Assembly (NCBI GenBank): GCA_937906355.1
Contig: CALCWF010000191.1
Location: forward strand, 1-37,147
Reading direction: 5' to 3'
Length of the DNA stretch: 37,147 nucleotides
Source of the DNA: an uncultured Rickettsiales bacterium
GTDB lineage: Bacteria > Pseudomonadota > Alphaproteobacteria > Rickettsiales > Deianiraeaceae
Each line of letters opens with the position of its first letter. The first letter of the stretch is position 1. Below the pieces are notes generated by a model. The model made no database searches. It was given only the letters and a program-made list of their open reading frames with translations, and was not told where the DNA came from. This document shows, in pieces, positions 5,010 through 35,607 of this stretch. Both the position numbers and the translations under genes were made by a program.

Positions 5010-6473
5010 CTATATTTTTCTAATTTTTGGTTCAAATTGAGTTGTTTTTTTGCCGAAATTATACCAGTTTATAAACTGTGAAATGCTATCGACTTGATCG
5101 TCGTGTTTGCATGCCGGGAAGGATAGTAGCTCTACTTCTAGTTCTTGCGTCCAAGGTTGTTCTTTTGCTATGAATAGACTACCAGCTTCGAGAATAGTTA
5201 ATATATCGTTTACTCTACATTCTTTTGACTTGGTGGGTTTGATAGCTATTATATTGTTATTGTCGACTTGCAGATCTTGTATCATTGAAGAGCCGTTTGA
5301 TTTATCTTCTATTAGGACTGCAATTGGTTTGTATTTCTCGATTAGTTCGAGGATTTTATTTTTTAATTCTGGATATGGGATTTTTAGTCTATACATATTG
5401 TATAGGTAGAATTTATTGTCTTTTATTGTAAAAATAGATATTGCCGTGAAGTCGTTCTCTGTTCCGAGACCAGAGGCACAGTCTATGCTGATGTAGTAGT
5501 TGAATGCGATTTTATTGTTAAATAGATTTTTTAGTTCTGTGATATCGAAGTATTTTAGCCAGCTTTTTTTAATCATATTACCTTCTAATGCGACTGGCGA
5601 TTGTTGATATTGAGCTTCAAAGTTATATTCTCCTAGGTCCTTACGAATAGTATTTAGAATTTTTTCTCCTTCCATTGACGGATGTAAAATGTCCCCGGGT
5701 TTACGTATTTTGTATAGTTTATCAAATAAATAGTATTTTTGCTCTTGTTCTGTGATTGACGGTAGGCAGACGCAAAACCAATCGTTATTTTTGTCATTAG
5801 ATAGAATATATCCGCTCAGATCCTCCATATGAAGTCGTTGCATTACGACGATTATTGAGCCATTATTTTTGTTATTCAATCTCGACGAGAACACTCCGGT
5901 GAACCAATTGATCGTTTTTTTACGATTTGCTTTGTTGTAGATTCCGACCGGATTGTGCGGATCGTCGATGATTAGAATATCTCCACCTTCTCCTGTTAGT
6001 GTTCCATTTACAGACGTAGCGAAACGAAAGCCATTTGCTGTTGTGCAAAATTTGTTTTTTTCATTCATTCCGTTTGATATTATTGTATTTGGAAAGGCTT
6101 TTTTATACCATTTTGATTGCATGATTTGTCTTGTATCTGTCGAGTGTTTTGTTGCTAATATTTTTGAATAGCTTGCGACTATTATACGTTTTGTCGGATC
6201 TTTACCGAGGATCCAAGCGGGAAACGAAACGCTACAAACGATTGATTTTAGGTATCTTGGTGGAATATTTATTAATAAACGCTTTATTTTTCCATTTTCG
6301 ACTTCTTCGAGAATATCACACAGATAGTCAAGATGCCAATTCCATTGTAGTTTTATAGACGGATTCAGTGTAGAGAAAGCTCTGCGTAGGAAATATTTCA
6401 TTTTTATCTTCGTGAGGGTTGAAAGTTTTTGCTTTGTTGTTTTTTTTATATTTTGATGTTCTTCTTTTTGCAT
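5010..6473 (-). CDS. Phage terminase large subunit-like protein (ATPase plus nuclease domains)
   Basis: 487 aa. It has a Walker-A-like IPPRYLKS, a Walker B ILIIDDPHNP, VVMQRLHMEDL, and the C-terminal nuclease motif HDDQVDSISQ. This layout matches terminase large subunits. No other phage genes are adjacent. Confidence 0.75.
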   Translation of the reverse strand: MQKEEHQNIKKTTKQKLSTLTKIKMKYFLRRAFSTLNPSIKLQWNWHLDYLCDILEEVENGKIKRLLINIPPRYLKSIVCSVSFPAWILGKDPTKRIIVASYSKILATKHSTDTRQIMQSKWYKKAFPNTIISNGMNEKNKFCTTANGFRFATSVNGTLTGEGGDILIIDDPHNPVGIYNKANRKKTINWFTGVFSSRLNNKNNGSIIVVMQRLHMEDLSGYILSNDKNNDWFCVCLPSITEQEQKYYLFDKLYKIRKPGDILHPSMEGEKILNTIRKDLGEYNFEAQYQQSPVALEGNMIKKSWLKYFDITELKNLFNNKIAFNYYISIDCASGLGTENDFTAISIFTIKDNKFYLYNMYRLKIPYPELKNKILELIEKYKPIAVLIEDKSNGSSMIQDLQVDNNNIIAIKPTKSKECRVNDILTILEAGSLFIAKEQPWTQELEVELLSFPACKHDDQVDSISQFINWYNFGKKTTQFEPKIRKI

Positions 6474-6741: not shown

Positions 6742-7434
6742 TTAATTACAACGGAAAGGTTTTCCGGTTATAACTGTCACGATAGAGTCGTAACCAAATA
6801 TTGCGGCCATACCACATACAATAGCGAGCACCAATCCCCACGTTACTTTTCCAAAGAAGAACATTATACCAAGAACTATAAAGGCGACCCCTGATATTGC
6901 ACGACCGACACTACCTGTTATTATTTTTATTGCATTACATATTGCCTGACCGAAAGCGTTACTTTCACTTGTACCACCAAGTGATACACAAATACCGACG
7001 TGATCCGTTTCTTTTTCCATTTGCTCGTCTTTGTCATCGTCTGTAAATTGATCTTCGAACTTTTTCGAACTCCCTTTGCTTATTACGCATGTATTCTTTC
7101 CTAAGACTTGACAATCAGTGTCTTTCATGCAATACATTTCGCCAGCCGCGTTGCACATGTACATTGGCTCGTTTCTTGAAAGCGTGCTTTCTATTGCCTC
7201 ACAACTTGTATTTTTTAGTATTGAATATCTATCGCAAAGCGATTGATCTGCCACATTATTTGTGTCATCGTAGCAATTTATTGCAATTGCTTTTTTATGT
7301 TCCGTTCCTTTTGTGACAGGATACCCTTTTATATCATCGGCTGACGCTGTGATACTAAAAGAAGCGAAAAAAAACATTAATAGAGATAATAAAATTTCTT
7401 TTCTCACGAATAACATATTGTTTTTCATAACCAT
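6742..7434 (-). CDS. virB2: TrbC/VirB2-family T4SS pilin-like protein with an N-terminal Cys-rich extension
   Basis: Signal peptide LLSLLMFFFASFSITASA. The C-terminal ~70 aa (AICNAIKIITGSVGRAISGVAFIVLGIMFFFGKVTWGLVLAIVCGMAAIFGYDSIV) has the two-helix hydrophobic pilin core of VirB2/TrbC. The ORF track starts at a TTG (7443); the first ATG codons are at 7434 and 7428. Confidence 0.55.
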   Translation of the reverse strand: MVMKNNMLFVRKEILLSLLMFFFASFSITASADDIKGYPVTKGTEHKKAIAINCYDDTNNVADQSLCDRYSILKNTSCEAIESTLSRNEPMYMCNAAGEMYCMKDTDCQVLGKNTCVISKGSSKKFEDQFTDDDKDEQMEKETDHVGICVSLGGTSESNAFGQAICNAIKIITGSVGRAISGVAFIVLGIMFFFGKVTWGLVLAIVCGMAAIFGYDSIVTVITGKPFRCN

Positions 7435-7523
7435 TGATATCAAAATAAATTGAATATTATTTTCTTTTTAGAGAAGAACTTTAGAAAATATATTTTTCAA
7501 GCGTTTTTTGCATTTTGATTTAT

Positions 7524-16789: not shown

Positions 16790-17626
16790 ATGTTAAAAGT
16801 CGGTTTACGTTTACTTCTAACATTATGTATCACTTGCATACTGAGTGCAACTGCTTTTGCGACACCGGAGAGGGAGACTCCATTGCCAACCGATACGAGA
16901 ATAAAGACTTTTTTGTATAATCCGAATGAGATTTATACGGTAAAATTTGTTGTCGGTTATCAGTCTCTTATAGAGCTACAAGAAGGTGAGGTTGTTAAAT
17001 TGATTGCTTTTGGCGATCACGGACCGTGGAAAGTTACAAATTTGGATTACAATCTTCATAAATTATTCATTAAGGCAACCGATCCTGGTGCTAAGACGAA
17101 TATGATAATATTGACCAACAAGAGAACTTATTCTCTTGAGATAGAGTCTGTTAGCGACAGTGGCGATGCGGACGACAAGATTACGTATGTTTTACGTTTC
17201 TTTTATCCAGATATAAATGTGGATGTTCCGCCAACGACGACGAAGCTTGCGAAGATTGCCCTTAACAAGCAAGTTGCATTAGGAGGGCACATGAATTCAT
17301 TTGTTAATGAGAAGATGATGGCGAGTGCTGGTTCTATAAATACAAATTATACGTATAGTGGCGATGGAAAGAACATTGTTCCGACAATGGTGTTTGATAA
17401 TGGAACTAAGACGTATTTTAAATTTACTGATATGGAAAATTTACCAATAATAAGTGCCGTTAATGAAAAAACGAAAGAAATACCACTTCGTTTACGTAAG
17501 AGCGGTGAATATATTTATGTTGATACAGTAGAGCAACAGTTTACGATTCGAAAGGGAAGGGAATTGATTTGTATTTTCAACGAAGCAGAGGAGAAGGAAG
17601 TTGCTTACTTGAATAAGAAAAAATAA
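16790..17626 (+). CDS. virB9: Type IV secretion system protein VirB9 (both N- and C-terminal domains present)
   Basis: Signal peptide MLKVGLRLLLTLCITCILSATAFA. The VirB9/CagX/TrbG pattern is present: TDTRIKTFLYNPNEIYTV..GYQSLIEL.EGE.V..IAFGD..PWKV...LFIKA...GAKTNMIILTNKRTYSLEI. The C-terminal domain reads YTYSGDGKNIVPTMVFDNGTKTYFKF. Confidence 0.85.
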   Translation: MLKVGLRLLLTLCITCILSATAFATPERETPLPTDTRIKTFLYNPNEIYTVKFVVGYQSLIELQEGEVVKLIAFGDHGPWKVTNLDYNLHKLFIKATDPGAKTNMIILTNKRTYSLEIESVSDSGDADDKITYVLRFFYPDINVDVPPTTTKLAKIALNKQVALGGHMNSFVNEKMMASAGSINTNYTYSGDGKNIVPTMVFDNGTKTYFKFTDMENLPIISAVNEKTKEIPLRLRKSGEYIYVDTVEQQFTIRKGRELICIFNEAEEKEVAYLNKKK

Positions 17627-19735: not shown

Positions 19736-21178
19736 ATGAGCCAAAACAATCAACCAACCGATAATTTTGAAGAGAGAGAGAAAGAGTTGCAGAAAAAAAT
19801 TGACAATCTTGGTGCGACCATCAAAGAAATCGAAGGTAATAGTGACTTTCAAGAAAAATTAGAGAAAATTAATAAAAGTTTAACGGAATTAAAGGAAAAG
19901 AAAGAAGAAGAAAAAAGAGGTCAACGATCTGGTCAAAATAACCAAAATAACAACAACGAAGAAAAAGTCGAAAATAAGCTTGAAGACGTGGAGAAAAAGA
20001 TTCAAATGCTTGAAAGGGAAATTAATAAGTGTTGTGTCGCGTCCTTTAATTCTGTTGAAGGAAAGATAGTCTTTAAAGATAATGAAGGCAATGAGAAAAA
20101 GAAAGAAGAGGCAATAAATTCTCCAATCAGAAATGCTAAACAGGCGATGGAACAGATGAAGAGTGGGTTATTCAGAGATCAGGTTGCGATCATTGGATTC
20201 GATGATGGTAGTGACGGTAATTATCATGAAGTAGCAAATCTTGTAAAGAGCGTTGGAAATTCGAAAAGTTTATCAGAATTTATTAATCAATACGCTTCTT
20301 TTAACGAGAGGCTTGATAAAATATATGGATGTCATGACGCGGAAGGTCTTCAAGCAAAGCTGAAGGACAAGATAGCAGACAAGCAAAGCAATATTAAAGA
20401 CAACGTTACGAAGATGTATATACAAAGTCTGCGTGAAATGGCGAAAAAATACAATAAAGCAGACGATAAGATATTTGACTATATTAAAGCAATAATGCGG
20501 TTAAGTCCAGAGCTTTCAAATGAGGAAGTCATTAAACGTCTTGACAATCGCTCGGTTGAGGAACAATTTAATATAGTTAATAATCTTAAAACGAGATATC
20601 CAAATCTTTTCGCGAGCAAGAGGGAAGAGATAGGTCAAATGATATACAGTTATAATGAAGGCATCAGGGACTGTAGCAATATATTCAGTGAGAAGCTAAA
20701 TTTCACCAAAGATATACAAAAAGTTTCTTCTAATTTGGGAGTAACGATAGAACAATACGAGGAGAGAAGAAAACAGGTAAATAAGGAATTTGAGAAAAAA
20801 CATGGAATTAGGCATTTTTTCAGAAATTTGATCGGTCTAGAATCGCCAGAAGGTGAGGAGTGTATAAAAAAGATTAATGAGATGAGAAAAAAGCAAGATG
20901 CTGCTTATGATAGACAAATGGAGGCAACGAATGATATTCTTAAAAGTAAGGAGGGTGGTACTAGCGTTATTGATTTGAAGGATAAACTACTCAGTAACAA
21001 GCTTCAGCAAATAAGAGAAAGATCGGAAATACCGATTAGACATGACGTTGCAAGTTTGTCGGATAAGAAGGAAATTACGGGAATTTATTATTCGAATATG
21101 CAAGATATGGGAAATGAAGGTAAGTATTCTAGTGGAGTTTCTTCCGGTTGGAAGGGACATTTCGTGGGGCGATATTAG
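19736..21178 (+). CDS. Hypothetical 480-aa protein with N-terminal coiled-coil (orphan)
   Basis: A long uninterrupted ORF with an ATG start and the consensus promoter upstream. The N-terminal ~100 aa are K/E-rich heptad-like. No family recognised. Confidence 0.6.
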   Translation: MSQNNQPTDNFEEREKELQKKIDNLGATIKEIEGNSDFQEKLEKINKSLTELKEKKEEEKRGQRSGQNNQNNNNEEKVENKLEDVEKKIQMLEREINKCCVASFNSVEGKIVFKDNEGNEKKKEEAINSPIRNAKQAMEQMKSGLFRDQVAIIGFDDGSDGNYHEVANLVKSVGNSKSLSEFINQYASFNERLDKIYGCHDAEGLQAKLKDKIADKQSNIKDNVTKMYIQSLREMAKKYNKADDKIFDYIKAIMRLSPELSNEEVIKRLDNRSVEEQFNIVNNLKTRYPNLFASKREEIGQMIYSYNEGIRDCSNIFSEKLNFTKDIQKVSSNLGVTIEQYEERRKQVNKEFEKKHGIRHFFRNLIGLESPEGEECIKKINEMRKKQDAAYDRQMEATNDILKSKEGGTSVIDLKDKLLSNKLQQIRERSEIPIRHDVASLSDKKEITGIYYSNMQDMGNEGKYSSGVSSGWKGHFVGRY

Positions 21179-23393: not shown

Positions 23394-24788
23394 TTATTTT
23401 TGTATTTTTTTCTCTATTAATTTGTCTAAATTGGTTATTAGTTCTCCTGCTTTTTCTCGTTCTTCTTGTTTTAAATTTTGATTTAAAATCACCCTTTCTT
23501 TGAAAGAGTTATATGCATCAATTACTTCAAGAAGGGTTGTGTTTTTTTTGTCTTCTGTAAGTATTGTTGCAAAGTTTCGAAATGTTGAAACTACTAGTTC
23601 CGGCTTCATTAATTCTGGGCATCCATTTTTCAGAATCGAGATTCGTTGTTCTAGTATGTTAATTTGTTTGACAATATTGTTGCTCTGTCCTTGCTTTTTG
23701 AGCGTTTTGCTAAACGTTGCGAACGACTTGATAAGAGGTTGTAGCTTATCATATGGTACGTATAATGATTTATTGTTTGCTTCAAGTTTTGCTAACTCTG
23801 CGACAAACATTTTGATCCCCTTTTCTGTAAGTCCAGTCTCTATTGAATTCAATATGACCAATTTTTCTTCGTCAGTGATTGACGAATTGTGTTTACGAAA
23901 ATCAATGAAATCGTGATATATGTCATTCAATTCCGATAGACTGCTTTGATTGTTGTCGAGAAACTTTTGATATGCGTTGCATTTATTTTCAAAATCATCA
24001 TCATTGATGATGTTATTATTATTAATATAATTAATATCGATGGCATTGTTATTGTTTTTGTTACGCCTTGCATAGTAAATATTTCTTTCTTGTTCTTGAA
24101 ACTCTGCTTGTCTTACGAGACGTTCATTGTATTCGGCATCGGTTTCTCCCGGAAATCGTTCGGTCATCAATAGAGCATTATTATGCTGTTTGTCCAACTG
24201 TTTTTCAATGTTTTCTTCATCTATTTTTTTTCTAAAATCTTCAAATATACTCGACATTTTAATTACTTTCATCAATTGTTCTTCGTCGACGATGTCTTGT
24301 TGAAAATTTTCACAAAATATGCGAAATTCTTCACATTGCTTGATTGTAGGTGCAGGGTTATTACCTAATATTTTCTTGAATTCTTCAATTCTAGAACTTA
24401 GCCACTCTTCGTAAGATGTTTTAAATAGAGCTTTCAATTCTTCAGGTTTCGCACCTTTGAATTGTTCAAAGACATTTTTAGCAAGAGTTAACTTTCTAAA
24501 AAATATATATCGATCCAATTTTTTATCTTCTCCTTTTTCCCCAATTGTCAAAAAAGCTTTATTTGGTGATTTGAAGTTTTTTTCTAACGCTTCTACGCCT
24601 TGCTTATACAATTCTTGCTTTGTTACTCCTATCACGTTTGCGACGTCTTCGGCTCTTTGCTCCGTGTAGTATTCGATCAATGCATCCCATGCGTCATTAT
24701 CTATTTCCTTAAATGATTTGACATCGCGATTACCGAGGACTTGACAAAATGCATTTGTACATCGAAGACCTTTTATAATAGTTTCCAT
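23394..24788 (-). CDS. Hypothetical ~464-aa helical protein (orphan)
   Basis: Long ORF whose first ATG is at 24786-24788 (METIIKGL); the track starts at an upstream TTG (24812). It is K/E/N-rich and helical in character. No family recognised. Confidence 0.55.
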   Translation of the reverse strand: METIIKGLRCTNAFCQVLGNRDVKSFKEIDNDAWDALIEYYTEQRAEDVANVIGVTKQELYKQGVEALEKNFKSPNKAFLTIGEKGEDKKLDRYIFFRKLTLAKNVFEQFKGAKPEELKALFKTSYEEWLSSRIEEFKKILGNNPAPTIKQCEEFRIFCENFQQDIVDEEQLMKVIKMSSIFEDFRKKIDEENIEKQLDKQHNNALLMTERFPGETDAEYNERLVRQAEFQEQERNIYYARRNKNNNNAIDINYINNNNIINDDDFENKCNAYQKFLDNNQSSLSELNDIYHDFIDFRKHNSSITDEEKLVILNSIETGLTEKGIKMFVAELAKLEANNKSLYVPYDKLQPLIKSFATFSKTLKKQGQSNNIVKQINILEQRISILKNGCPELMKPELVVSTFRNFATILTEDKKNTTLLEVIDAYNSFKERVILNQNLKQEEREKAGELITNLDKLIEKKIQK

Positions 24789-25005
24789 ATTGGGAATAAT
24801 AAAACAAAACAATTAATTTTATTAAAAAAAGTAGTTGTGTCAATTAATTTTATCAACTTTTGATTGGTTTATATTTATATCGTTATTTCGTGATACCTTT
24901 TGAATACACTTTTTTAATACAACTAACTTTATTTAGTTTATTTGATTAGTTGACTGAAAATTTTTTGAAAATTTTATAATTTTTGCATAAAGTTATACTC
25001 ATAAT

Positions 25006-25123: not shown

Positions 25124-28100
25124 TCAATTTTTCTTTGTATTTACGACAATTTCTGTATCTTCAATTTGAAGTATCAGTTTTTCAAATTCGCTATACTTAC
25201 CATTTTCGATGTCTGATTTTATTTGCTGGATTTGAGATATGTCATCTATGTTAATTGTCTTTGAGTTTGCGATTTTTAAAGATGGGATTTGATGCCCGAC
25301 GTAGGGCGACGAGACGAGCGGACGTCTTGTCGCTTGTATTACTGAAGAAGTGGAGATTGATATATTGCTTGTTGAGTTTTTAGAAAACTCATGAGGATAA
25401 TTGTCGCTGACGAAAGAATTATTTGTGTTGTGTGAATCTTGGCTACAATTATTCGCATTTTGCTGTTTGATTGTGCCACTGCTCGTGTAGGTATTATTAA
25501 GATACGATATATTGTTATTGTTTTCCCCATTTCCTGCATCGATAGTGTTTCCACTGTAGTTGTTGCTATATTTACTATTGCTTGTTTTCTTTTTTCTATT
25601 TGCTCCCAGTTTAATGTCTTTCTTTGTCGGGAATTTAACGAAAAAATCATCTAGATCGTAAATTTCGCTTATTTGTAAACGTGTTCCAGTTTCTGGATTA
25701 GTTTTTGCATCAACCTCCATTACAATTTTTTTCCCTTCGACTAAATCGTTTTCATGCTGATTTATTAAATTATCATCAAAGATTGATGTTTCGTAGAGTC
25801 CGCTTAAATCTAGTAAATGAACGAAGGCGAATTTCTTCTTGTTTTTAAACCTCATTCTAACCTCAGTCACGACTCCACACATCAAAAGTCTTGTCTCAGT
25901 TTGATAGTTTGTTTCTAATACATCCTCCGCTGTTTCGAAATTATATTTTTCCAATTTACTCTTATAGTGATCTAGTGGGTGGGTCGTCATATAGAAGCCG
26001 AAAATTTCGAATTCAAAAGCTGATAATTTGTTCGAGTCGTATTCTGGATAGTTTTTCAGCTTTGGTATTAAAGGAATGTTGTCGTCTTGCCCGAACATAT
26101 TTATAATGGATTCTGTTTTTTTTTCTCTTTGTCGCCGTGAGAAATCCAATGCTGTATCGACAATAGCCGTTTCATTCTCGATGATTGTCCTAATGTTAAT
26201 TCCGAGACTTTTCCATGTTCCCGACTTAGTTAGACTCTCTATGACTTTTTTATTCAAAAGCTGTCCGCAACGATTAAAAAAATCTTGTAGATCTTTAAAT
26301 TTTCCACTACTATCTCTAATATTGCAGATTTCTTTTGCCAAATTTGCCCCGATTCCTTTTATTGCTCCGAGTGCGTAAACGATTTTTCCTTCATGACAAG
26401 AAAATTCCGCCATAGATGTATTAATATCAGGTGGGATTATTTCAATTTTCATATTACGGCACTCGCTAACGAAGCCATTTAGCTTATCTGTTTTGTTTAT
26501 ATCTAGATTCATTAATGCCGTCATGAATTCTACCGGATAGTTTGCTTTTAGATATGCGGTTTGATAAGATATTATTGTATAACTTATAGCATGTGCTTTA
26601 TTGAAGCCGTAGCCGGCGAATTTCGCGATTATATCAAATAATGCCTTTGCTTCGTTTCGACTTACAAGACCGAGTTTTTCGGATCTATCTATAAAAACAG
26701 CAGATTGCTTATCCATCTCTTCTTTAATTTTTTTACCCATTGCTCGACGTAATAAATCTGCTTCACCAAGTGAATATCCTGCTATTTTTCTAGCGACTTC
26801 CATTACTTGCTCCTGATATATTATTATGCCGTATGTTTCTTTCAAAATTGGCTCTAATATTGGATGATAATAGCTTATCTTTTCTTCGCCCATTTTACGA
26901 CGAATGAAGGACGGCATATTTTCCATTGGACCTGGTCGATTTAATGACGTGATAGCCGCGATGTCTGATATCTTATCTGTTTTTATTTTTTTTAAGGCGT
27001 TTCTTGGTAGCGGAGTTTCAAGTTGAAATATACCTTTTAAGTGCCCTGTTTGCAACAAGTCGAATGTTTTTTTATCATCTGTTGGTAGTCTATCGACGTC
27101 GATGTCGCGACCTGTATTTTTCTTTATCATTTCGCAGGCTTTTGTTAGAACAGTCAATGTTTGCAGACCTAAGAAGTCGAATTTAACAAGTCCTATTTTT
27201 TCGCAGTCCTTCATGTCGTAGCCAAAGACGGCAATACGATTTTCTGGTTTTGCATCAAAAAAACTAACATTTCCTTCGTATTTTAATTTCTCATTCTTGT
27301 TGCTCTTATTGTCGTTCTTGACGATATTTTCGTTTTCATCGCGTTCTTTGACGGCGTGATTGACGCTTTTGACCTGTGAAGCAGTCATGTTTTCGTCGTT
27401 GTCCTCGTTTTCTTCGTTATTTTTATCGTCGATACAGTTATCGTTATTTTCTTCGCTACATACAGGACCGATTTCAACAAGAGGCTTATCTCCAATAACA
27501 ACGCCGGCGGCGTGCATAGATGTATTACGATTCAGATCTTCCAGATCCATGGCAATAGTCATCAATTTGTGCATTTTTGGATTGTTATCCATTTCGTCTT
27601 TTAGACGAGGTATCATATCTAGTGCTTTTTGAATTGTTATTGGCTCGATAGGATTAAATGGTATCAGTTTGACAATATCGTTTGTCTCGTTAAACGACAT
27701 CTGTGTAACACGACCGACGTCTTTGATGACCATTTTTGCTTTCATTTTACCGTATGTTATAATTCGTGAGACGCTTTCTTTGCCGTATTTATTGACTACA
27801 TAGTCGATTGTTTTCCAACGATTTTCCTGACAAAAGTCTATATCGAAATCTGGCATTGATACGCGTTCAGGATTCAAAAATCTTTCAAAAAATAGTCCAT
27901 ATTCAAGAGGATCTACTTCTGTAATTTTTAGACACCAAGCGACAAGAGAGCCGGCACCGGAACCACGACCAGCACCAATAGCTACACCGTTGTGTTTAGA
28001 CCATTGAACGAAATCGGAGACTATAAGAAAGTATCCGGGGAAGCCCATTTTTTCTATAACATTAATTTCGTATTTTAGTCTATCCAAATATTGTTCTTTT

Positions 28101-29071
28101 GTATGTTCTGCTTTATTCCAGTTGATTTGTTTGAATCTTTCTTCCATTCCGTCGTATGCCATTTGCTCCATTATTTTTGCTTCTTCCTCCTTACTTTTGC
28201 AGAAGTGAGGGAGCGTTGGTTTTCGTCCGCGAACTGAGAAATTACTTTTTTTTACAATTAATTCTGTATTCTCGATTGCCTCCGGAATATCGCTAAACAA
28301 TTCTTCCATTTCTTTTGCTGATTTCAAGTAATATTCTTCGTTTAGTCTTTTTCTATTTTCTTCTGTTAGGAACATTTTATCACGTATGCAGGCCAGTGCG
28401 TCGAAAGCTTCGAAATGTTTTCTTTTGTAGAAGCAACAATCGTTTGTTGCTGCGAGTGGAATGCTAGCTTTATATTTGTTATTTTCGTAGGCGTAATTTA
28501 TTAAAAAATCTTCCAATTCTTTTTCTTTTGTTCTACCGTGTCTTGTTAGTTCTATATACATCCTATCTTCGAAGATTTCATGCAATTCGTCGAGCGTATC
28601 AGTTGCGACTTTTTCTCCATAATTTAGAAATTCATATCCAATGACGCCACGATATCCGCCCGTCAGCAGGATTACGTCTTTTGAATATTTTTTTAGTTCT
28701 TCCATTGTTATCCATAATTGTTGAAAATCGTTTTCAATGTGTTCGAAATGTCCGCAACGTAAAAGTTTTAGGAGATTTAGATATCCATTTTCATTTTTTG
28801 CAATTAGTCCGAGCTGCGGGAAGGGATCATTTAAGTCGTAGTTTTTTTTTCCGATAAAAACGTTTAGACCAATTAGAGGTTTTACTTTTAAATCTCGTAG
28901 ATGCATCGACCATCGAAGACCTGCGGACAGAGACATATCATCCATTAGGCACATTGCTTTTATCTTGTTTTCCTTTATGAATTCTTCTAGTTGTCCTAGT
29001 TTTAATGCACTTGTTAACAAGCTATATTCCGAACGTGTGCGAAGATGATAGAACGACATAACGTTTTTCAT
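25124..29071 (-). CDS. dnaE: DNA polymerase III alpha subunit
   Basis: 1315 aa. N-terminal PHP domain (HLRTRSEYSLL), PDFDIDF, GLVKFDFLGLQTL, the NRPGP region, and HAISYTIISYQTAYLKANYP, plus an OB-fold region. It contains low-complexity insertions. Confidence 0.95.
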   Translation of the reverse strand: MKNVMSFYHLRTRSEYSLLTSALKLGQLEEFIKENKIKAMCLMDDMSLSAGLRWSMHLRDLKVKPLIGLNVFIGKKNYDLNDPFPQLGLIAKNENGYLNLLKLLRCGHFEHIENDFQQLWITMEELKKYSKDVILLTGGYRGVIGYEFLNYGEKVATDTLDELHEIFEDRMYIELTRHGRTKEKELEDFLINYAYENNKYKASIPLAATNDCCFYKRKHFEAFDALACIRDKMFLTEENRKRLNEEYYLKSAKEMEELFSDIPEAIENTELIVKKSNFSVRGRKPTLPHFCKSKEEEAKIMEQMAYDGMEERFKQINWNKAEHTKEQYLDRLKYEINVIEKMGFPGYFLIVSDFVQWSKHNGVAIGAGRGSGAGSLVAWCLKITEVDPLEYGLFFERFLNPERVSMPDFDIDFCQENRWKTIDYVVNKYGKESVSRIITYGKMKAKMVIKDVGRVTQMSFNETNDIVKLIPFNPIEPITIQKALDMIPRLKDEMDNNPKMHKLMTIAMDLEDLNRNTSMHAAGVVIGDKPLVEIGPVCSEENNDNCIDDKNNEENEDNDENMTASQVKSVNHAVKERDENENIVKNDNKSNKNEKLKYEGNVSFFDAKPENRIAVFGYDMKDCEKIGLVKFDFLGLQTLTVLTKACEMIKKNTGRDIDVDRLPTDDKKTFDLLQTGHLKGIFQLETPLPRNALKKIKTDKISDIAAITSLNRPGPMENMPSFIRRKMGEEKISYYHPILEPILKETYGIIIYQEQVMEVARKIAGYSLGEADLLRRAMGKKIKEEMDKQSAVFIDRSEKLGLVSRNEAKALFDIIAKFAGYGFNKAHAISYTIISYQTAYLKANYPVEFMTALMNLDINKTDKLNGFVSECRNMKIEIIPPDINTSMAEFSCHEGKIVYALGAIKGIGANLAKEICNIRDSSGKFKDLQDFFNRCGQLLNKKVIESLTKSGTWKSLGINIRTIIENETAIVDTALDFSRRQREKKTESIINMFGQDDNIPLIPKLKNYPEYDSNKLSAFEFEIFGFYMTTHPLDHYKSKLEKYNFETAEDVLETNYQTETRLLMCGVVTEVRMRFKNKKKFAFVHLLDLSGLYETSIFDDNLINQHENDLVEGKKIVMEVDAKTNPETGTRLQISEIYDLDDFFVKFPTKKDIKLGANRKKKTSNSKYSNNYSGNTIDAGNGENNNNISYLNNTYTSSGTIKQQNANNCSQDSHNTNNSFVSDNYPHEFSKNSTSNISISTSSVIQATRRPLVSSPYVGHQIPSLKIANSKTINIDDISQIQQIKSDIENGKYSEFEKLILQIEDTEIVVNTKKN

Positions 29072-29191
29072 TTAGACTTCTATTTAGATGATTTATTTGT
29101 ATTTATCTAAATGCATCTTTCAGTAGTTCGAGAGCTTTACAAAAATCAAACGATTTTTTAAACTTACTTATTGACTTTTTTCATTTAATGA

Positions 29192-30592
29192 ATGAGTTCC
29201 ATTCTCATGGAAGAAGATAAGGCAAAAGCTAAAAAGCTAAGCGTGGATTACATTCACTTTGAGGCGACGAGCGATACGATAGAAATTCATAGAGGTAGAA
29301 ATGGGTATGAATGGAGCGGTCAGAAGGGTAAAATATGTGAGTGGACTCTTCCTATTCTTGTCGAAAAAGACGCTGATGAGATTTTAGAGCAGATATATAA
29401 TTGCAAAGAATGGGAACCTTATGGCAAAGGTCGTGAAACATCAAAAGATACTCCAGGTCTGAGAGACAGGATTTGGCAAATAGTTTTACCACATATTGAC
29501 ATCAGATCGCTTAAACCGGTGCCGAAAATAGGAGAACAAGAATTCGAAGGTTGTAAAAGAAGTGATAGAGCTTCAATGAATAGAGCACAAAATCAAGGAA
29601 GCTACGTAGATAAAGATAGAATAAAACAGCCGAAAGTCGTTGGTTCAGATGAGTGCTATACTTTCTATCAAGGTGTAGAACTTGTTGCTGATTGGTTTGT
29701 AAATAACGTTGATGAGAACTATTTTAGAAACAAAATTGTCTACTGTAACTGCGATGATACGAAATCTGCTTTTTGGATATATTTTTATAACAACTTTCAT
29801 AAGTTAGGTTTGAAAAAACTTATCGCCTCTGCTTTCGATAAAACCGGCTTGTCTTATGGAAATAATTACGAAGAACATATGAGAGGGCTGTATGCAAAAC
29901 AGGAAGAGTGCGGTGGATATATCTACGAATACAATGGGGGGGATGTTAAAAGATTTCCACCAGAAGGCGAAAAATCAACGTTTCATGGAGATTTCAAGGA
30001 GCCAATATGCTACAATATAGCAAAAAATGAGGCAGATATTATAATGACAAACCCGCCATTTGGCAAGAAGTGGAGATCTTTTGTTGAAACGATGCTTGAA
30101 ACTGGCAAGAAAGTTATTTTTTGGGGTAATGGCGGTGCTCCTCTTTATAACTGGTTTATGCCTCTATTGAACGAGAAAAAAGTTTTCATTATACGAGGTT
30201 GTAGCGATCATTATTTTACTGATCACTATTTATCTCCGACATATCACAGAAAAAGAGCACTTGCCTATATATATACAACCGAAGATTTGAGCTTTCAAAA
30301 ACCAGGGGAAAAGCATTATTCGACGAAGAAAAAAATGTTAGAGAACGACACCGCTTGGTATGACGACGATGGAGTACTTTGTTGCGATAATGCTATGATA
30401 CCGAAGGACACAGACGAAATCTTAGCTGTAAGCATAAATGTGTTAAAACATAACATTTTGAACGATGGATATGAAATTGTCGATTATCACGGACACTTTC
30501 CTTATAAAAGTGGTAAAAAGTATTTTTGGCGAATCAAAATCCAAAAAGAATCAAAAAGAAAGGCAAACCTGAGTGGAAAGAAGAAAAGCTGA
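29192..30592 (+). CDS. N6-adenine DNA methyltransferase, EcoRI-methylase-like family, with ~150-aa unknown N-terminal extension
   Basis: Catalytic motif IV IIMTNPPF (nt 30050-30061). DECYT, VYCNCDD..SAFWIYFYNNFHKLGLKKLIA, KKVIFWGN, and the C-terminal IPKD...LAVSINVL...GYEIV resemble the family I recall as EcoRI_methylase (PF13651). Confidence 0.7.
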   Translation: MSSILMEEDKAKAKKLSVDYIHFEATSDTIEIHRGRNGYEWSGQKGKICEWTLPILVEKDADEILEQIYNCKEWEPYGKGRETSKDTPGLRDRIWQIVLPHIDIRSLKPVPKIGEQEFEGCKRSDRASMNRAQNQGSYVDKDRIKQPKVVGSDECYTFYQGVELVADWFVNNVDENYFRNKIVYCNCDDTKSAFWIYFYNNFHKLGLKKLIASAFDKTGLSYGNNYEEHMRGLYAKQEECGGYIYEYNGGDVKRFPPEGEKSTFHGDFKEPICYNIAKNEADIIMTNPPFGKKWRSFVETMLETGKKVIFWGNGGAPLYNWFMPLLNEKKVFIIRGCSDHYFTDHYLSPTYHRKRALAYIYTTEDLSFQKPGEKHYSTKKKMLENDTAWYDDDGVLCCDNAMIPKDTDEILAVSINVLKHNILNDGYEIVDYHGHFPYKSGKKYFWRIKIQKESKRKANLSGKKKS

Positions 30593-30627
30593 TTTTGAGT
30601 GTGTGAGAAGATAATAGAGCGACATAG

Positions 30628-31278
30628 TTATTGTATATTGTTGCTTTCAAAAAGTATTCTTGCTCCAAAATTATTTGAATATAGTTCTTTATTACTTGCA
30701 TTAAACTCACTTTTCAAATTACAATACAAGGAATTTAACGAGATTATTTTGTATGATTTTACATAAAAACAATCTTTTCGTTTTTCTACTTCAAATGAAA
30801 ATAAAAAATGAACCGTATTTGCAGTAATTTTTGAGTGTTTTTCAGGAGAGAAGTAAAAAGTTCTAAAACTATCATTAACGTTCTTTTTATTAAATGTTTT
30901 ACACTCCAAGTAATATATTTTGTTTTCAAGTTCAAAAGCAATATCGGGATATCCGCTTGCTGCTTTTTTACCTTGTGAATTTGTAGGAATATCAGCATTT
31001 AGATTTAATTTATTCATTTCGTTTTTTACAATTATTTCGATTTGATTACCAAATTCATTTGGGCGACCTTTGAAATTATAAGTTTTATTTACTATATTAA
31101 AACCAACATTTTTTAATATTTCCAAAGTTTTAATGTGTTGTTTATTGTTGAAATCAAAGAATTCAACTTCATAGCCAAACATAGATTTTATAATTAGATT
31201 AAATGGTATATTTTTCATTGGTCTAATCATTTGTTCTATACAATTTTCTAATTGTTTTACATATTTATCATCTTCCAT
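30628..31278 (-). CDS. Candidate type II restriction endonuclease (PD-(D/E)xK-like), otherwise orphan
   Basis: 216 aa. Its start codon lies 2 nt downstream of the stop of the upstream methyltransferase on the same strand. Single nuclease-like signature GYPD(112)IAFELENKIYYLE(125)CK(127), i.e. PD-X12-ExK. No further family recognised. Confidence 0.45.
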   Translation of the reverse strand: MEDDKYVKQLENCIEQMIRPMKNIPFNLIIKSMFGYEVEFFDFNNKQHIKTLEILKNVGFNIVNKTYNFKGRPNEFGNQIEIIVKNEMNKLNLNADIPTNSQGKKAASGYPDIAFELENKIYYLECKTFNKKNVNDSFRTFYFSPEKHSKITANTVHFLFSFEVEKRKDCFYVKSYKIISLNSLYCNLKSEFNASNKELYSNNFGARILFESNNIQ

Positions 31279-31280
31279 AA

Positions 31281-32453
31281 CTATTTTTCACAAAAAACTA
31301 TTCTATTTGAGTTTGTTCCTTTTTTATTGTTTTCAACTCCCCAAATATTAGATGTCTTAGTGAAAGTTTGTATATTTATTAGAACGTCAATCTTGTTAAA
31401 TTGCAGTTTTTTGACTATTTTTATAATACTTTCTTCGAGTTTTATTTTACCATTCTTAACTTCTCCGACTTCGAAGGCGATATGACCTCCCGTTCTTAGT
31501 ATTCTTTTTAATTCAATTAAAACTCTTTCCATTTTTCCTTCCCAGTCTTCGAGTTTTTTAAATTGAGATATTTGTATTTTATCGACGTCGATACCGCAAA
31601 ACCAGCATCTCATCCAGTTATCTTGTTTATAATTTATAACATCTAAAAATGGAGGAGAAGTAATAATCAAATCAACCGAATTGTCTTTGATTTCTGGCGT
31701 ATTATCGGCATCTTTTGTTAGGAACAAAGTCTTTTGTTTTACGTTTTCTAATATTTTTTTTGTAAAAATATCAATATCTTTTGTTAGAGTTTTATATTTT
31801 TTTAAGCAACATTCTTTAACATTTCTATATTCAATTTTATTATTGTATTTTTTATTTATTAAAATTTGTCTTTCCGGCGTTATTGCTTGATTTGGCGGTA
31901 AAGTGAATGTAGACAAGAAGCCGACCGAATGACCCGTGAGACGATTTAACACGAGCAGTCTTATCCATTTGTCTATAATATCTAATTCATTCTTCTCTTG
32001 TTTATGTATTAAATAATTTTTAATTTTTACTATTTCTTCAAAGGTTTTTTGATGAAAAAACATTGATAAATCTGGTTCATTTGTGATTTGAGTTTCTTGC
32101 TCTAATATTGAATTAAATCTTTTTTCAATATCGATGATATCGATGATAAAAATTCTTGGTTCTGACATTATTCTTGATAGCGGGTTGATGTCGTTAAAAT
32201 ATGCGATTCTACCTAATAAACTTGCTTCTATTCCGGTCGTTCCTCTTCCTGAGAATGGATCATATACAATATCGCCTTCTTTTGTATATCTTGTGATGAA
32301 GTAATTTGGTAGTTGTGCTTTAAAGCAGGCTCTATAAGATATTTCGTGGATCGAATTGCATTGTTTCTGTCTATTAGGCCAGAACTCTTTTTCCTGAAAG
32401 TTGACAGACCGTATACCGTCCTCATTATCGGTGTTTGGTTCGTTATTATCCAT
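31281..32453 (-). CDS. DNA methyltransferase (N4-cytosine/N6-adenine class; SPPF motif suggests N4-cytosine)
   Basis: AdoMet-binding motif I VYDPFSGRGTTGIEA at aa 63-77, and catalytic motif IV DLIITSPPF at aa 261-269. ATG start at 32451-32453. Confidence 0.8.
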   Translation of the reverse strand: MDNNEPNTDNEDGIRSVNFQEKEFWPNRQKQCNSIHEISYRACFKAQLPNYFITRYTKEGDIVYDPFSGRGTTGIEASLLGRIAYFNDINPLSRIMSEPRIFIIDIIDIEKRFNSILEQETQITNEPDLSMFFHQKTFEEIVKIKNYLIHKQEKNELDIIDKWIRLLVLNRLTGHSVGFLSTFTLPPNQAITPERQILINKKYNNKIEYRNVKECCLKKYKTLTKDIDIFTKKILENVKQKTLFLTKDADNTPEIKDNSVDLIITSPPFLDVINYKQDNWMRCWFCGIDVDKIQISQFKKLEDWEGKMERVLIELKRILRTGGHIAFEVGEVKNGKIKLEESIIKIVKKLQFNKIDVLINIQTFTKTSNIWGVENNKKGTNSNRIVFCEK

Positions 32454-32455
32454 GA

Positions 32456-32482
32456 ATTTATTCGATAGTCTATCGAATAAAT
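32456..32482. promoter_or_regulatory. Perfect 27-bp palindrome abutting the methyltransferase start codon (function unknown)
   Basis: ATTTATTCGATAG (32456-32468), centre T (32469), CTATCGAATAAAT (32470-32482). The arms are exact reverse complements. The palindrome ends 2 nt from the ATG at 32451-32453. A minus-strand TTGACA (32482-32487) abuts its distal end. Confidence 0.6.
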
Positions 32483-32581
32483 GTCAAATTCGTATCAAAT
32501 TGATATTTATTGAAACGGGAGACGATGTGTAAACTTTATTGCGTAATATGACGACGTTTTTCTATTTTCTCGTTTTTATTA

Positions 32582-34945
32582 TTATGACTTTAAAATCATT
32601 CTCTTTCCCGTGTGATCTGGTGCAGATAGTATACCGTCGCTTTCCATTTGCTCTATGAAATTTGCGGCTTTGTTATAACCAATCCGCAGTTTGCGTTGTA
32701 GATAGCTTATTGACGTTTTTTTTTCGTTTAGAACAATTCCTATTGCCTGTCTATACATTGCATTGTCACTGTCATTATCGTTAATCTTGTAAGATTCACC
32801 GTCACCGTCTTCATCTTCGTCGGTTGTTAACGTTATATATTTTGGTTCATCGTTGTTATCTTTTAGAAAGTTTACGACATTTTCGACTTCGTCGTCTGTT
32901 ATAAGAGGTCCATGAACACGAAGCGTCTTTGTGCCACCTAGCATGAAAAGCAGATCTCCTTTTCCAAGTAGTTGTTCCGCACCTTGCTCTCCGAGTATTG
33001 TTCGACTATCGATTTTTGATGTTACATGATAGCTTATTCTTGTAGGGAAATTTGCCTTGATAACGCCAGTTATAACGTCGACAGAAGGACGTTGTGTTGC
33101 CATTATCAAGTGAATTCCGGCAGCACGTGCCATTTGAGATAGACGTTGAACCAGAACTTCAATTTCTTTTCCCGCTACAACCATCAGATCTGCCATTTCG
33201 TCTATTACAACAACGATATATTGCATCAATGCATTTTCTGAATGCTCGTCATCTTCGTATTGCTTTCTGTCTACGATTTCATACTCCGTTGGATCGATTG
33301 TGATGTTGTTATAGTTAATGTTATCATTTTTTATCATATTTTTTATGTTGTTTATTTCACTTTTTGTTATTTTGTGCTTTATATTATTATTGCTATGGCT
33401 CTTTTTTGATTTATTTTCTTGTTTTGCTATTTTAGATTTAATTTTTTCGTTATAACCGGTGATGTTTCTAACGCCTGCGTTTGACATCATGCGATAGCGA
33501 TTTTCCATTTCACGGACGACCCATTTTAACGCAAGAACGGCACGTTTTGCGTCAGTTATAACCGGCATCATTAAGTGTGGTATTCCTTCGTATGCTGAGA
33601 ATTCGAGCATTTTTGGATCGATCATTATTAATCTACATTGCTCCGGCGATAGTTTATATAGCATAGATAGAATCATTCCATTTATACCGACTGACTTTCC
33701 ACTGCCAGTTGTTCCAGCTATTAATAGATGTGGCATATCTGCCAAATTTGCGATAATTGGTTTACCGAATATATTACATCCTAATATCATAGGAATTTGT
33801 GCGTCAGACTGAGTATACTCGTTGCTTTCAATCAGTTTTCTAAAACACACGGTTTCTCTCTCTTTATTTGGAACTTCAATTCCAAGCGTATCACGTCCAG
33901 AGATAGTTGCAATACGAACGGAACTTACCATCATTGTTCGTGCTATGTCCTCTGACAGACCTATGACGCGCGATGCCTTTACGCCGGCTTGCAGTTTGAA
34001 CTCATAGAGAGTTACGATAGGACCAGTTCTAAAATTAATCATTTCTCCTCGAACGCCGAAGTCCCCGAGTATATTAGAAAGCTTTTGCATGTTCTCTTTG
34101 CAGATTGCTTGACTTTGGAGCACATCTTTTCGCTCTATAAATTTTAGCAGATCCGATGTTGGTGCGATGTATTCAGATATTTTGCACGATTTGTCGTTGT
34201 CGTTATGATTAACGTTATTTTCAATGATTTCTGTTTTATTTCTTTTTCGAGAGAAGATTTTTTTAAAAAATATTAATACTATTCTTAGTAAGAATATCGG
34301 AGATTTAACTATGAATATTTCAATTTTTATTAAACGAATGATGAAGTTGAATATTTTTGTAATAAATTCATGCATTGTGATAAGTATTTTTAGACAACAA
34401 TTTGATTTAATTGCTACAATGCGAGTTTTTTTACCGAGGACGAATACTGCGTATGGATAGAACAGGAGCGTTGCGACTAAAAATAGAACTATATATTTTT
34501 TAAGTTTAGGTTCTAACGTTAGAAACGCCTCTTTAAGTAAAAGTCCCATACGTCCACCGTAGGGTATCAAGGAGTATAAGCGATTGCGATCGTCGATCAT
34601 TAAGACGGCGAAGAAGCATAGACACAATGTTATAAAGGCAGTGTAAAGAGTTTTAAATAAAATAAACCTTGGTGGTTTTTTCAAAGTCAATCTTGCTGAC
34701 AGATATAGTGCGAACGGAAACATAGCGAATATTGCTGGTCCAAAATTTTGAAATAGTAGATCAGCTAAGATTGCACCGAACTTTCCAAGTACATTGCGTA
34801 CAGGAACTGTGCTTACGACGTTCAAACATGTGTCTGAAACAGTGTATGTTACCAGTGATAGCACGGTAATCGCGATACATGCAAGTAAAACGATTCCTTT
34901 GTTTCTTGTATTGACATTCAATGTTGATAACGTTTTTGGCTTCAT
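32582..34945 (-). CDS. ftsK: DNA translocase FtsK
   Basis: 787 aa. N-terminal TM helices, Walker A LLIAGTTGSGKSVGIN, Walker B IVVVIDEMADL, ATQRPSVDVITG, and the gamma winged-helix SISYLQRKLRIGYNKAANFIEQME. Confidence 0.95.
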   Translation of the reverse strand: MKPKTLSTLNVNTRNKGIVLLACIAITVLSLVTYTVSDTCLNVVSTVPVRNVLGKFGAILADLLFQNFGPAIFAMFPFALYLSARLTLKKPPRFILFKTLYTAFITLCLCFFAVLMIDDRNRLYSLIPYGGRMGLLLKEAFLTLEPKLKKYIVLFLVATLLFYPYAVFVLGKKTRIVAIKSNCCLKILITMHEFITKIFNFIIRLIKIEIFIVKSPIFLLRIVLIFFKKIFSRKRNKTEIIENNVNHNDNDKSCKISEYIAPTSDLLKFIERKDVLQSQAICKENMQKLSNILGDFGVRGEMINFRTGPIVTLYEFKLQAGVKASRVIGLSEDIARTMMVSSVRIATISGRDTLGIEVPNKERETVCFRKLIESNEYTQSDAQIPMILGCNIFGKPIIANLADMPHLLIAGTTGSGKSVGINGMILSMLYKLSPEQCRLIMIDPKMLEFSAYEGIPHLMMPVITDAKRAVLALKWVVREMENRYRMMSNAGVRNITGYNEKIKSKIAKQENKSKKSHSNNNIKHKITKSEINNIKNMIKNDNINYNNITIDPTEYEIVDRKQYEDDEHSENALMQYIVVVIDEMADLMVVAGKEIEVLVQRLSQMARAAGIHLIMATQRPSVDVITGVIKANFPTRISYHVTSKIDSRTILGEQGAEQLLGKGDLLFMLGGTKTLRVHGPLITDDEVENVVNFLKDNNDEPKYITLTTDEDEDGDGESYKINDNDSDNAMYRQAIGIVLNEKKTSISYLQRKLRIGYNKAANFIEQMESDGILSAPDHTGKRMILKS

Positions 34946-35607
34946 AAATCTTCGTTTTTATTGATTTTTTCTAATACTTTTTTGAGAATTGTTTTCGTAT
35001 TTTTTAAGCTTTCTATGCAGTTAATATTATTCTTTTTTCTTTGATCGATTTTACTGAATATTTGATGTAAAACTTTTTTTACTCTTTCGTCGTTTGCTAT
35101 TTTATTAGTATTACTAATATTATTGACGACATTCGTGTCAACTGTTGATTTTTTATCTTGCTTGTCGATGTTAAATTCATCGTTCTGTTCGATGACATCA
35201 TTGGCAGTTATGTCTATTGTATAATCATTCTTGCAATTTTCTTCTACCGTTACATCATTTACGTTTGCTGAAATATTATCGTCTATACCATCGTCATTAA
35301 CGTCAGTTGTGCTTTCTATTGTTTGCCAGATCGGTGTCCGTGTATTCGTGCCGTTATTCATGTCGTTATTATCGAACGTATCGTTGTCGTTTTCTTCATC
35401 GAGAATTTTATCAAAAGAGTCGTCGTCAATATTTTTATTGTTGTCTATAATTATATTGTTGTTTATGATTACACTATTTTCGTTGCTAACGTTATCTTTT
35501 TCATTGTTTATTTCTTCGGCGACAAATAAACTATCTTCGTCTTCATATTCTTCTCCAAATAGATTGATATTAACATTTTCGTACTTATTTTTTGCATCAT
35601 CAGTCAT
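34942..35607 (-). CDS. Hypothetical acidic D/N/E-rich low-complexity protein
   Basis: 221 aa with an ATG at 35605-35607, 6 nt after the mlaE stop. Its TGA overlaps the ftsK ATG (ATGA at 34942-34945), suggesting translational coupling. No family recognised. Confidence 0.45.
   Translation of the reverse strand: MTDDAKNKYENVNINLFGEEYEDEDSLFVAEEINNEKDNVSNENSVIINNNIIIDNNKNIDDDSFDKILDEENDNDTFDNNDMNNGTNTRTPIWQTIESTTDVNDDGIDDNISANVNDVTVEENCKNDYTIDITANDVIEQNDEFNIDKQDKKSTVDTNVVNNISNTNKIANDERVKKVLHQIFSKIDQRKKNNINCIESLKNTKTILKKVLEKINKNEDL

Follow-up and report, generated by a model that had tools for sequence, protein, structure and literature searches.

An apparently intact, exchanged Type II restriction-modification cassette of the MjaV family, probably specific for GTAC, beside a likely solitary methylase gene in an uncultured Rickettsiales bacterium

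Here, we analysed a stretch of 37,147 nucleotides (nt) from an uncultured Rickettsiales bacterium (contig CALCWF010000191.1; the whole stretch is called the window below), in which three open reading frames (ORFs) fill the interval between dnaE and ftsK. The initial annotation had described these ORFs, a methylase gene (M1), a nuclease candidate of 216 amino acids (aa; R) and a second methylase gene (M2), as one restriction-modification-like island. The three ORFs were reproduced at the same positions in our ORF listing, and the motifs quoted for each of them, as well as the 2-nt spacing of M2 and R, were verified in the translations. We consider it likely that M2 and R form an intact, exchanged Type IIP cassette of the MjaV family, with GTAC as its probable site, and that M1 beside them is an unrelated, solitary gene. 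The pair belongs to recognized families, has intact catalytic motifs and a conserved gene order, has moved between genomes and is under selection, and the DNA around it is depleted of GTAC. From these observations we infer a GTAC specificity with N4-methylcytosine (m4C) as the product, a dimeric blunt-type cleavage, expression of the cassette, and a role in defence or addiction. The features of the locus, in window coordinates, are as follows.

25124-29071, minus strand: dnaE, from the ORF listing
29072-29191: divergent intergenic region between dnaE and M1, 120 nt
29192-30592, plus strand: M1, 466 aa, probably a solitary N6-adenine methyltransferase (EcoRI-methylase family, PF13651), outside the cassette
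30593-30627: gap of 35 nt that separates the stop codons of the convergent genes M1 and R
30628-31278, minus strand: R, 216 aa, predicted Type IIP endonuclease of the MjaV family PF27324
30640-32393, minus strand: block of nucleotide homology common to the cassettes of contigs L001, L082 and L083, 83-84% identity
31279-31283, minus strand: M2 stop codon and 2-nt spacer ahead of the R start
31281-32453, minus strand: M2, 390 aa, predicted DNA methyltransferase of the cassette, PF01555 (N6_N4_Mtase)
32454-32581, minus strand: intergenic region between ftsK and M2, 128 nt, presumed promoter region of an M2-R operon
32456-32482: perfect 13+13-nt palindrome just ahead of the M2 ATG, possibly an operator or a translational hairpin
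32582-34945, minus strand: ftsK, from the ORF listing

The precomputed Pfam annotation places R and every one of its homologues in PF27324 ('MjaV'), and the PADLOC profile REase_II (PDLC03511) matches R at 2e-32 over residues 1-203 of 216. Local Pfam and NCBIfam scans gave no match for R; the Pfam copy used there predates PF27324. A profile search with R collected 1198 members from bacteria and archaea, about 214-230 aa in length, one of which shares 43% identity with R and goes under the NCBI name 'type II restriction endonuclease MjaV'. The catalytic site consists of P111-D112, 12 residues, and E125-C126-K127, which corresponds to the PD-(D/E)XK arrangement (D112/E125/K127), and position 125 is E or D throughout the 33-sequence family alignment. 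All 18 invariant columns of this alignment are retained in R, among them R72, N74, E75, G109-Y-P-D112, K127, T128, K189, E191 and N193. The AlphaFold (AF2) model of R reached a predicted local distance difference test score (pLDDT) of 92.1 and a predicted template modelling score (pTM) of 0.86, and its top Foldseek matches in the PDB were the Type IIP PD-(D/E)XK enzymes EcoRV, SfiI, HincII and SwaI and the Hjc resolvase only. A sequence search of R against the PDB returned no match even at E=10. Judged from sequence and model, R belongs to the MjaV family and is a predicted Type IIP endonuclease with a restriction-endonuclease-like fold.

The Pfam families proposed earlier for the two methylases were both recovered far above the cutoffs: M2 matches PF01555 at 68.6 bits (cutoff 26.7), and M1 matches PF13651 (EcoRI_methylase) at 104.5 bits (cutoff 26.4) over residues 149-432. 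M2 is also matched by the PADLOC profile MTase_II (PDLC03325) at 9e-134 over residues 18-389, and the two PADLOC Type II matches, together with PF27324 for R and PF01555 for M2, bear out a restriction-modification module. Motif I of M2 is DPFSGRG(TT) at residue 65 and motif IV is (IIT)SPPF at residue 266; both are kept in all cassette copies, and their order is permuted relative to the Pfam model. The best PDB sequence matches of M2 are N4-cytosine methyltransferases, covering the motif I region only. The SPPF form of motif IV is typical of N4-cytosine enzymes, and M2 is predicted to be one of them. At the junction of the two genes the dinucleotide TT separates the ATG of R from the M2 stop codon TAG. 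The same order, methylase and then nuclease, with a spacer of 1-5 nt, was found in all cassette copies (L001, L082, L083 and L085-87), and a distant pair in L099 has the same order and tight spacing. Since this tight junction is kept across copies, translational coupling of M2 and R is likely.

Four other distinct contexts (7 contigs) contain M2 and R as a pair and lack M1. The pair lies beside trmD/tilS/xerD/ftsK in L001, between gyrB on one side and dapA on the other in L082/L092, and downstream of an IS1595 transposase and RhuM and upstream of rpoZ in L083, while L085-87 carry the arrangement spoT-M2-R-dnaE (L085:1493-7353), with the R stop 1 nt ahead of the dnaE ATG. The window DnaE is closest to those of uncultured Rickettsiales (72% for L023 and 71% for L085-87; Deianiraea 44%). 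At the protein level, the window M2 is 89-90% identical and R 85-87% identical to the copies of L001, L082 and L083. For comparison, the housekeeping protein FtsK is 57-65% identical between the window and L001, and the C-terminal half of DnaE 62.7% between the window and L092. The window cassette is 70-77% identical to the L085 copy, less than to the copies from other contexts. Nucleotide homology runs from approximately codon 21 of M2 to just short of the R stop and both flanks are unrelated; because of these unrelated flanks, positions 30640-32393 can be regarded as the transferred unit.

The composition of the cassette is its own. Its G+C content (GC) is 0.24-0.26 and its GC at third codon positions (GC3) is about 0.15, whatever the GC of the host (0.26-0.34). 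In the window, GC is 24.0% for R, 30.1% for M2, 36.9% for M1 and 34.1% overall, and GC3 is 0.166, 0.263 and 0.336 for R, M2 and M1, respectively, compared with 0.329 +/- 0.028 for 18 other window genes, which puts R about 6 standard deviations under the window genes. The split between low-GC M2 and R and host-like M1, described in the initial annotation, holds qualitatively; for M2 it had been overstated (about 15-27%, where we obtain 30.1%). The ratio of nonsynonymous to synonymous substitution rates (dN/dS, Nei-Gojobori) lies at 0.04-0.13 in every one of the 20 pairwise comparisons, for M2 and R alike, and at 0.04-0.11 on the branches that include the window. M2-R is a bare two-gene mobile unit among related lineages, under purifying selection. 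The earlier suggestion of a horizontally acquired and possibly functional module holds for M2 and R, given their mobility, intact catalytic residues and dN/dS; M1 is not included in it.

No phage or plasmid vector of the cassette was identified: the phage and plasmid collections searched with R by tblastn gave no match, and the sole relative in an IMG/VR scan was a distant pair (R 28%, M2 47%). This pair lies at L099:3898-5642 (IMGVR_UViG_2791354996_000001) on a contig classified as viral, the M2-like gene first and the R-like gene after it. No transposon-type direct or inverted repeats flank the island, where just short repeats at chance level were seen, and Rfam and tRNA scans gave no match within it. 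A contig scan based on DnaE covered 80 loci, in which FtsK, M1, R and M2 were absent within 10 kb and no conserved dnaE-ftsK junction was present. The comparison of this junction among relatives, proposed in the initial annotation as a check, was thus informative for L085-87 only, whose arrangement is that of the window minus M1; in the window, M1 is wedged in on the opposite strand. In L023, the corresponding position upstream of dnaE holds an unrelated 443-aa ORF. This site could be ancestral, with allelic replacement, or it could be an insertion hot spot. The view that the cassette is unusual cargo in a reduced intracellular genome loses force, as the cassette is common among relatives and an intracellular lifestyle does not emerge from the window.

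As to the sequence recognized, restriction activity has been demonstrated experimentally for MjaV (MJ1500; PMC2615612), and M.MjaV places m4C in the palindrome GTAC, according to a paper that cites REBASE and methylome work (PMC11033074). We compared the counts of all sixteen 4-bp palindromes with maximal-order Markov expectations. GTAC was observed 17 times in the window, where 61.1 occurrences were expected (observed/expected ratio, O/E, 0.28; z -6.6), and this was the most significant deviation among the sixteen. In five cassette-bearing relatives, pooled, the O/E of GTAC was 0.24 (z -9.4), while in 67 other alphaproteobacterial loci (at least 10 kb each) its median was 0.78 and its 5th percentile 0.24. 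The depletion fits long exposure to GTAC restriction and is not proof of it. By homology and by analogy with MjaV, the site of M2-R is probably GTAC, methylated as GTA(m4)C. CCGG is enriched in the window (O/E 1.67).

In the mechanism that we propose, M2 would be transcribed first and R would be translated from its start 2 nt past the M2 stop. Using S-adenosylmethionine, M2 would modify both strands of a short palindrome; this is most likely GTAC, which would become GTA(m4)C. R, a small Mg2+-dependent PD-(D/E)XK endonuclease and presumably a homodimer, would cut the same site when unmethylated. The pair could in this way restrict incoming DNA, and it could enforce its own retention like other Type II pairs. 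The cassette would have come by horizontal transfer from a related Rickettsiales-like bacterium of lower GC, either as a newcomer to the lineage or in place of a resident allele, and would since be maintained by purifying selection. M1 would act alone, with neither a cognate nuclease nor a functional tie to the cassette.

Several points weigh against this reading and have to be set beside it. GCGC (O/E 0.21) and GGCC (O/E 0.22) are depleted in the window as strongly as GTAC, and for this reason the depletion of GTAC is no specific proof. Relatives without the cassette in the sampled 10-20 kb are depleted of GTAC too (O/E 0.40). The depletion of GCGC and GGCC and the enrichment of CCGG hint at other restriction pressures or at compositional effects. 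The GTAC assignment leans on family membership and on this depletion, and SPPF is a strong, not an absolute, marker of m4C enzymes. The Foldseek matches of R have probabilities of 0.97-1.0, yet their scores are weak (E about 1e-3; template modelling score, TM, 0.33-0.47). The spacer between ftsK and M2 contains weak consensus matches only and no convincing sigma-70-like promoter, and a palindrome able to form a hairpin abuts the M2 start. The synonymous distances (dS) of the cassette, 0.8-1.4, are unsaturated and those of the housekeeping genes saturated, but strong AT bias and low GC3 compress synonymous distances, which makes dS approximate. Finally, in L085-87 the cassette stands immediately upstream of dnaE, so its presence in the window may be due in part to vertical descent.

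The points on specificity bear on a first alternative, namely that M2-R is a working Type IIP pair whose specificity has diverged, so that its site is not GTAC and/or M2 makes N6-methyladenine (m6A). M2-R is likened to MjaV by family and not by direct identity, most family members share only 35-50% identity with R, GCGC and GGCC share the depletion, and M2-like methylases (37% identical) are found on plasmids, in uninformative neighbourhoods, without an MjaV-family partner. Nevertheless, the R family is compact, with uniform length, a mean column identity of 46% and invariant putative recognition residues; it is GTAC that is most significantly depleted in the window and in the cassette-bearing relatives, and the SPPF motif and the M.MjaV precedent favour m4C. 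We consider a diverged specificity rather unlikely.

A second alternative is suggested by the region upstream of M2. The first 20 codons of M2 are private to the window, so that its N-terminus is replaced in comparison to the other cassette copies. The palindrome at 32456-32482, ATTTATTCGATAG-T-CTATCGAATAAAT, ends 3 nt ahead of the M2 start codon and as RNA gives a 12-bp hairpin across the ribosome-binding region. It is absent from the other cassette copies and occurs once in the window, and was therefore rejected as a repeated genomic element; an operator, a translational throttle and an insertion scar are candidate roles for it. The scan for promoters and terminators did not rise above background (16 promoter-like sites, 17.4 expected), and no terminator-like hairpin was detected in the 35-nt gap between M1 and R. 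The cassette might be an inactive relic, acquired earlier, unexpressed or non-cutting, and decaying in a shrinking genome. The missing sigma-70-like promoter, the replaced N-terminus with a strong hairpin against the AUG, and the GC3 of M2, which seems to be drifting toward the host value and suggests long residence, all speak for such a relic. However, both ORFs are full length in comparison to their homologues, all invariant catalytic residues are present, and dN/dS stays low on the very branches that include the window. Moreover, a cell with R but no working M would die, and M without R would leave R unconstrained. We therefore find the relic quite improbable and retain the view of an intact, exchanged M2-R cassette.

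M1 requires a separate account. It carries the motif DIIMTNPPF (N287-P-P-F290), whose NPPF is invariant in a 31-sequence subfamily alignment, and it keeps all 70 invariant columns of the subfamily. The subfamily members are 440-470 aa long. Relatives of M1 are 53-70% identical to it; named members include Rickettsiales and Chitinispirillales metagenome-assembled genomes, with a 40% group in Bacteroidota, and M1 is approximately 30% identical to typical members of the EcoRI-methylase family. A conserved N-terminal domain (approximately residues 17-110, window 29192-29520) was modelled at a pLDDT of about 90 and had neither a Pfam match nor a fold match in the PDB. The model of the whole protein (pLDDT 79.5) gave weak Rossmann-methyltransferase fold matches only. 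L090 and L091 also encode, about 4-5 kb from the M1-like gene, proteins in which an EcoRI-type methylase domain is fused to a GIY-YIG nuclease domain (T5orf172/MUG113; L090:2007-3317 and L091:2838-4139), and such fusions are frequent among the 30%-identity matches to M1.

Homologues of M1 without M2 or R occur in three distinct contexts (9 contigs): with eamA on one side and uvrA on the other in L088/89; with a HIT gene on one side and a hydrolase/comM on the other in L090/91/93/94, syntenic in these four contigs; and adjoining a Type I S subunit gene in L095/96. Among the sampled loci, M1 stands together with M2 and R in the window only. There is no cognate nuclease beside M1, and no further ORF fits its 120-nt and 35-nt flanks. 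The most plausible reading of M1 is that of a solitary N6-adenine methylase, host-like in composition, that lies outside the cassette. The fallback offered in the initial annotation, with M1 as an orphan and M2/R as the true pair, agrees with both the absence of co-occurrence outside the window and the differing composition.

M1 and dnaE flank a common 120-nt divergent region that may control both. Rickettsiales are reported to lack CcrM. One may speculate that the M1 subfamily is a solitary m6A methylase retained in the lineage for a regulatory role linked to the cell cycle or replication and that, separately, the site upstream of dnaE is a recurrent spot of cassette capture or allelic replacement, an idea which we hold to be doubtful at present. 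It is very unlikely, in our view, that M1 is tied to the cassette, either as a second protective methylase (e.g., GTm6AC) that buffers its loss and gain or as the surviving half of an older, displaced restriction-modification system. M1 is indeed wedged between R and dnaE, where R abuts dnaE in L085-87, and M1-like genes do stand beside other restriction-modification genes in L095/96; against this, the two do not co-occur elsewhere, the two flanks of M1 hold no remnant nuclease ORF, and M1 homologues are stably solitary, as the synteny of the four contigs indicates.

The least tenable proposal, and the one favoured in the initial annotation, was a single three-gene system of MboII type (Type IIS), in which M1 and M2 would place m6A and m4C on opposite strands of one asymmetric site recognized by R; the genes are adjacent, their methylases differ in chemistry and tandem M1-like paralogues in one Cytophagia contig (P0115/P0120) indicate that the family can pair, but we dismiss it as highly improbable, because bare M2-R pairs stand without M1 in L001, L082, L083 and L085-87, M1 homologues never adjoin M2 or R elsewhere, M1 is on the opposite strand with a host-like composition unlike that of the cassette, and R is a small single-domain protein, not of Type IIS form, whose namesake cuts the palindrome GTAC (PMC11033074).

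Outside the island, the window carries the usual core genes of Rickettsiales, interspersed with genes for Type IV secretion. The latter are found at 6742-7443 (minus strand) and 16790-17626 (plus strand), encode a VirB2/TrbC pilin and a VirB9/CagX protein, and lie amid housekeeping genes; such scattering is typical of the rvh system of Rickettsiales. A 487-aa ORF at 5010-6473 (minus strand), with housekeeping neighbours, contains the RNaseH-like domain of a terminase large subunit (Terminase_6C, 1.9e-15) and may be a remnant of a gene-transfer agent or a prophage. DnaE and FtsK contain long low-complexity inserts rich in Asn, Lys and Asp, which are not in the conserved cores of their relatives, for example a stretch of about 70 aa in the central part of DnaE and a long C-terminal tail rich in Asn. 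Three ORFs had no Pfam match: 19736-21178 (plus strand, 480 aa), 23394-24812 (minus strand, 472 aa) and 34942-35607 (minus strand, 221 aa), the last of which is rich in N and D and overlaps the ftsK start by 4 nt.

The M2-R cassette is a well-understood kind of defence or selfish module and not a new system. What it adds is that at least one uncultured, apparently gut- or rumen-associated Rickettsiales clade still exchanges a Type II cassette that is under selection, with a matching genomic scar in the form of a three- to four-fold depletion of GTAC. This argues for more exposure to foreign DNA and shared gene pools than the picture of an isolated, decaying endosymbiont would suggest. A methylation barrier to transformation can be predicted, made up of GTA(m4)C and the m6A motif of M1. 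In addition, bacterial members are contributed to a family of restriction enzymes without a solved structure.

Comparison with known systems places the two parts of the locus in different company. The locus is similar to MboII-type systems in that two methylases of differing predicted chemistry stand beside one nuclease gene. It differs from them in the separate inheritance of the methylases, in a nuclease that does not look like a Type IIS enzyme and in the palindromic family target, for which one methylase is enough; the resemblance to MboII is a coincidence of position. M1 itself resembles the gamma-type N6-adenine methyltransferases of the M.EcoRI family in its PF13651 match and its NPPF motif, and differs from them in its extra conserved N-terminal domain and in having no EcoRI-like nuclease nearby. 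With the orphan methylases Dam and CcrM it shares a lifestyle, i.e., no nuclease partner, but not a family. R, in turn, has its best structural matches among the blunt-cutting PD-(D/E)XK Type IIP enzymes EcoRV, HincII and SwaI, whose arrangement of catalytic motifs it shares and which are likewise small single-domain enzymes for palindromes; this likeness of fold is remote only (TM 0.33-0.47, about 10% identity), and the MjaV family, unlike these enzymes, has no solved structure. The closest parallel to the cassette is MjaV/M.MjaV of Methanocaldococcus jannaschii. The two differ in their hosts, a Rickettsiales bacterium here and a hyperthermophilic archaeon there, and in the replaced M2 N-terminus and the upstream palindrome that belong to the window cassette, whose site and methylated base are predictions. 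They share the nuclease family PF27324, a length of about 215 aa, the PD-(D/E)XK site, a co-oriented adjacent amino-methyltransferase with an SPPF-type motif IV, and a host DNA strongly depleted of GTAC.

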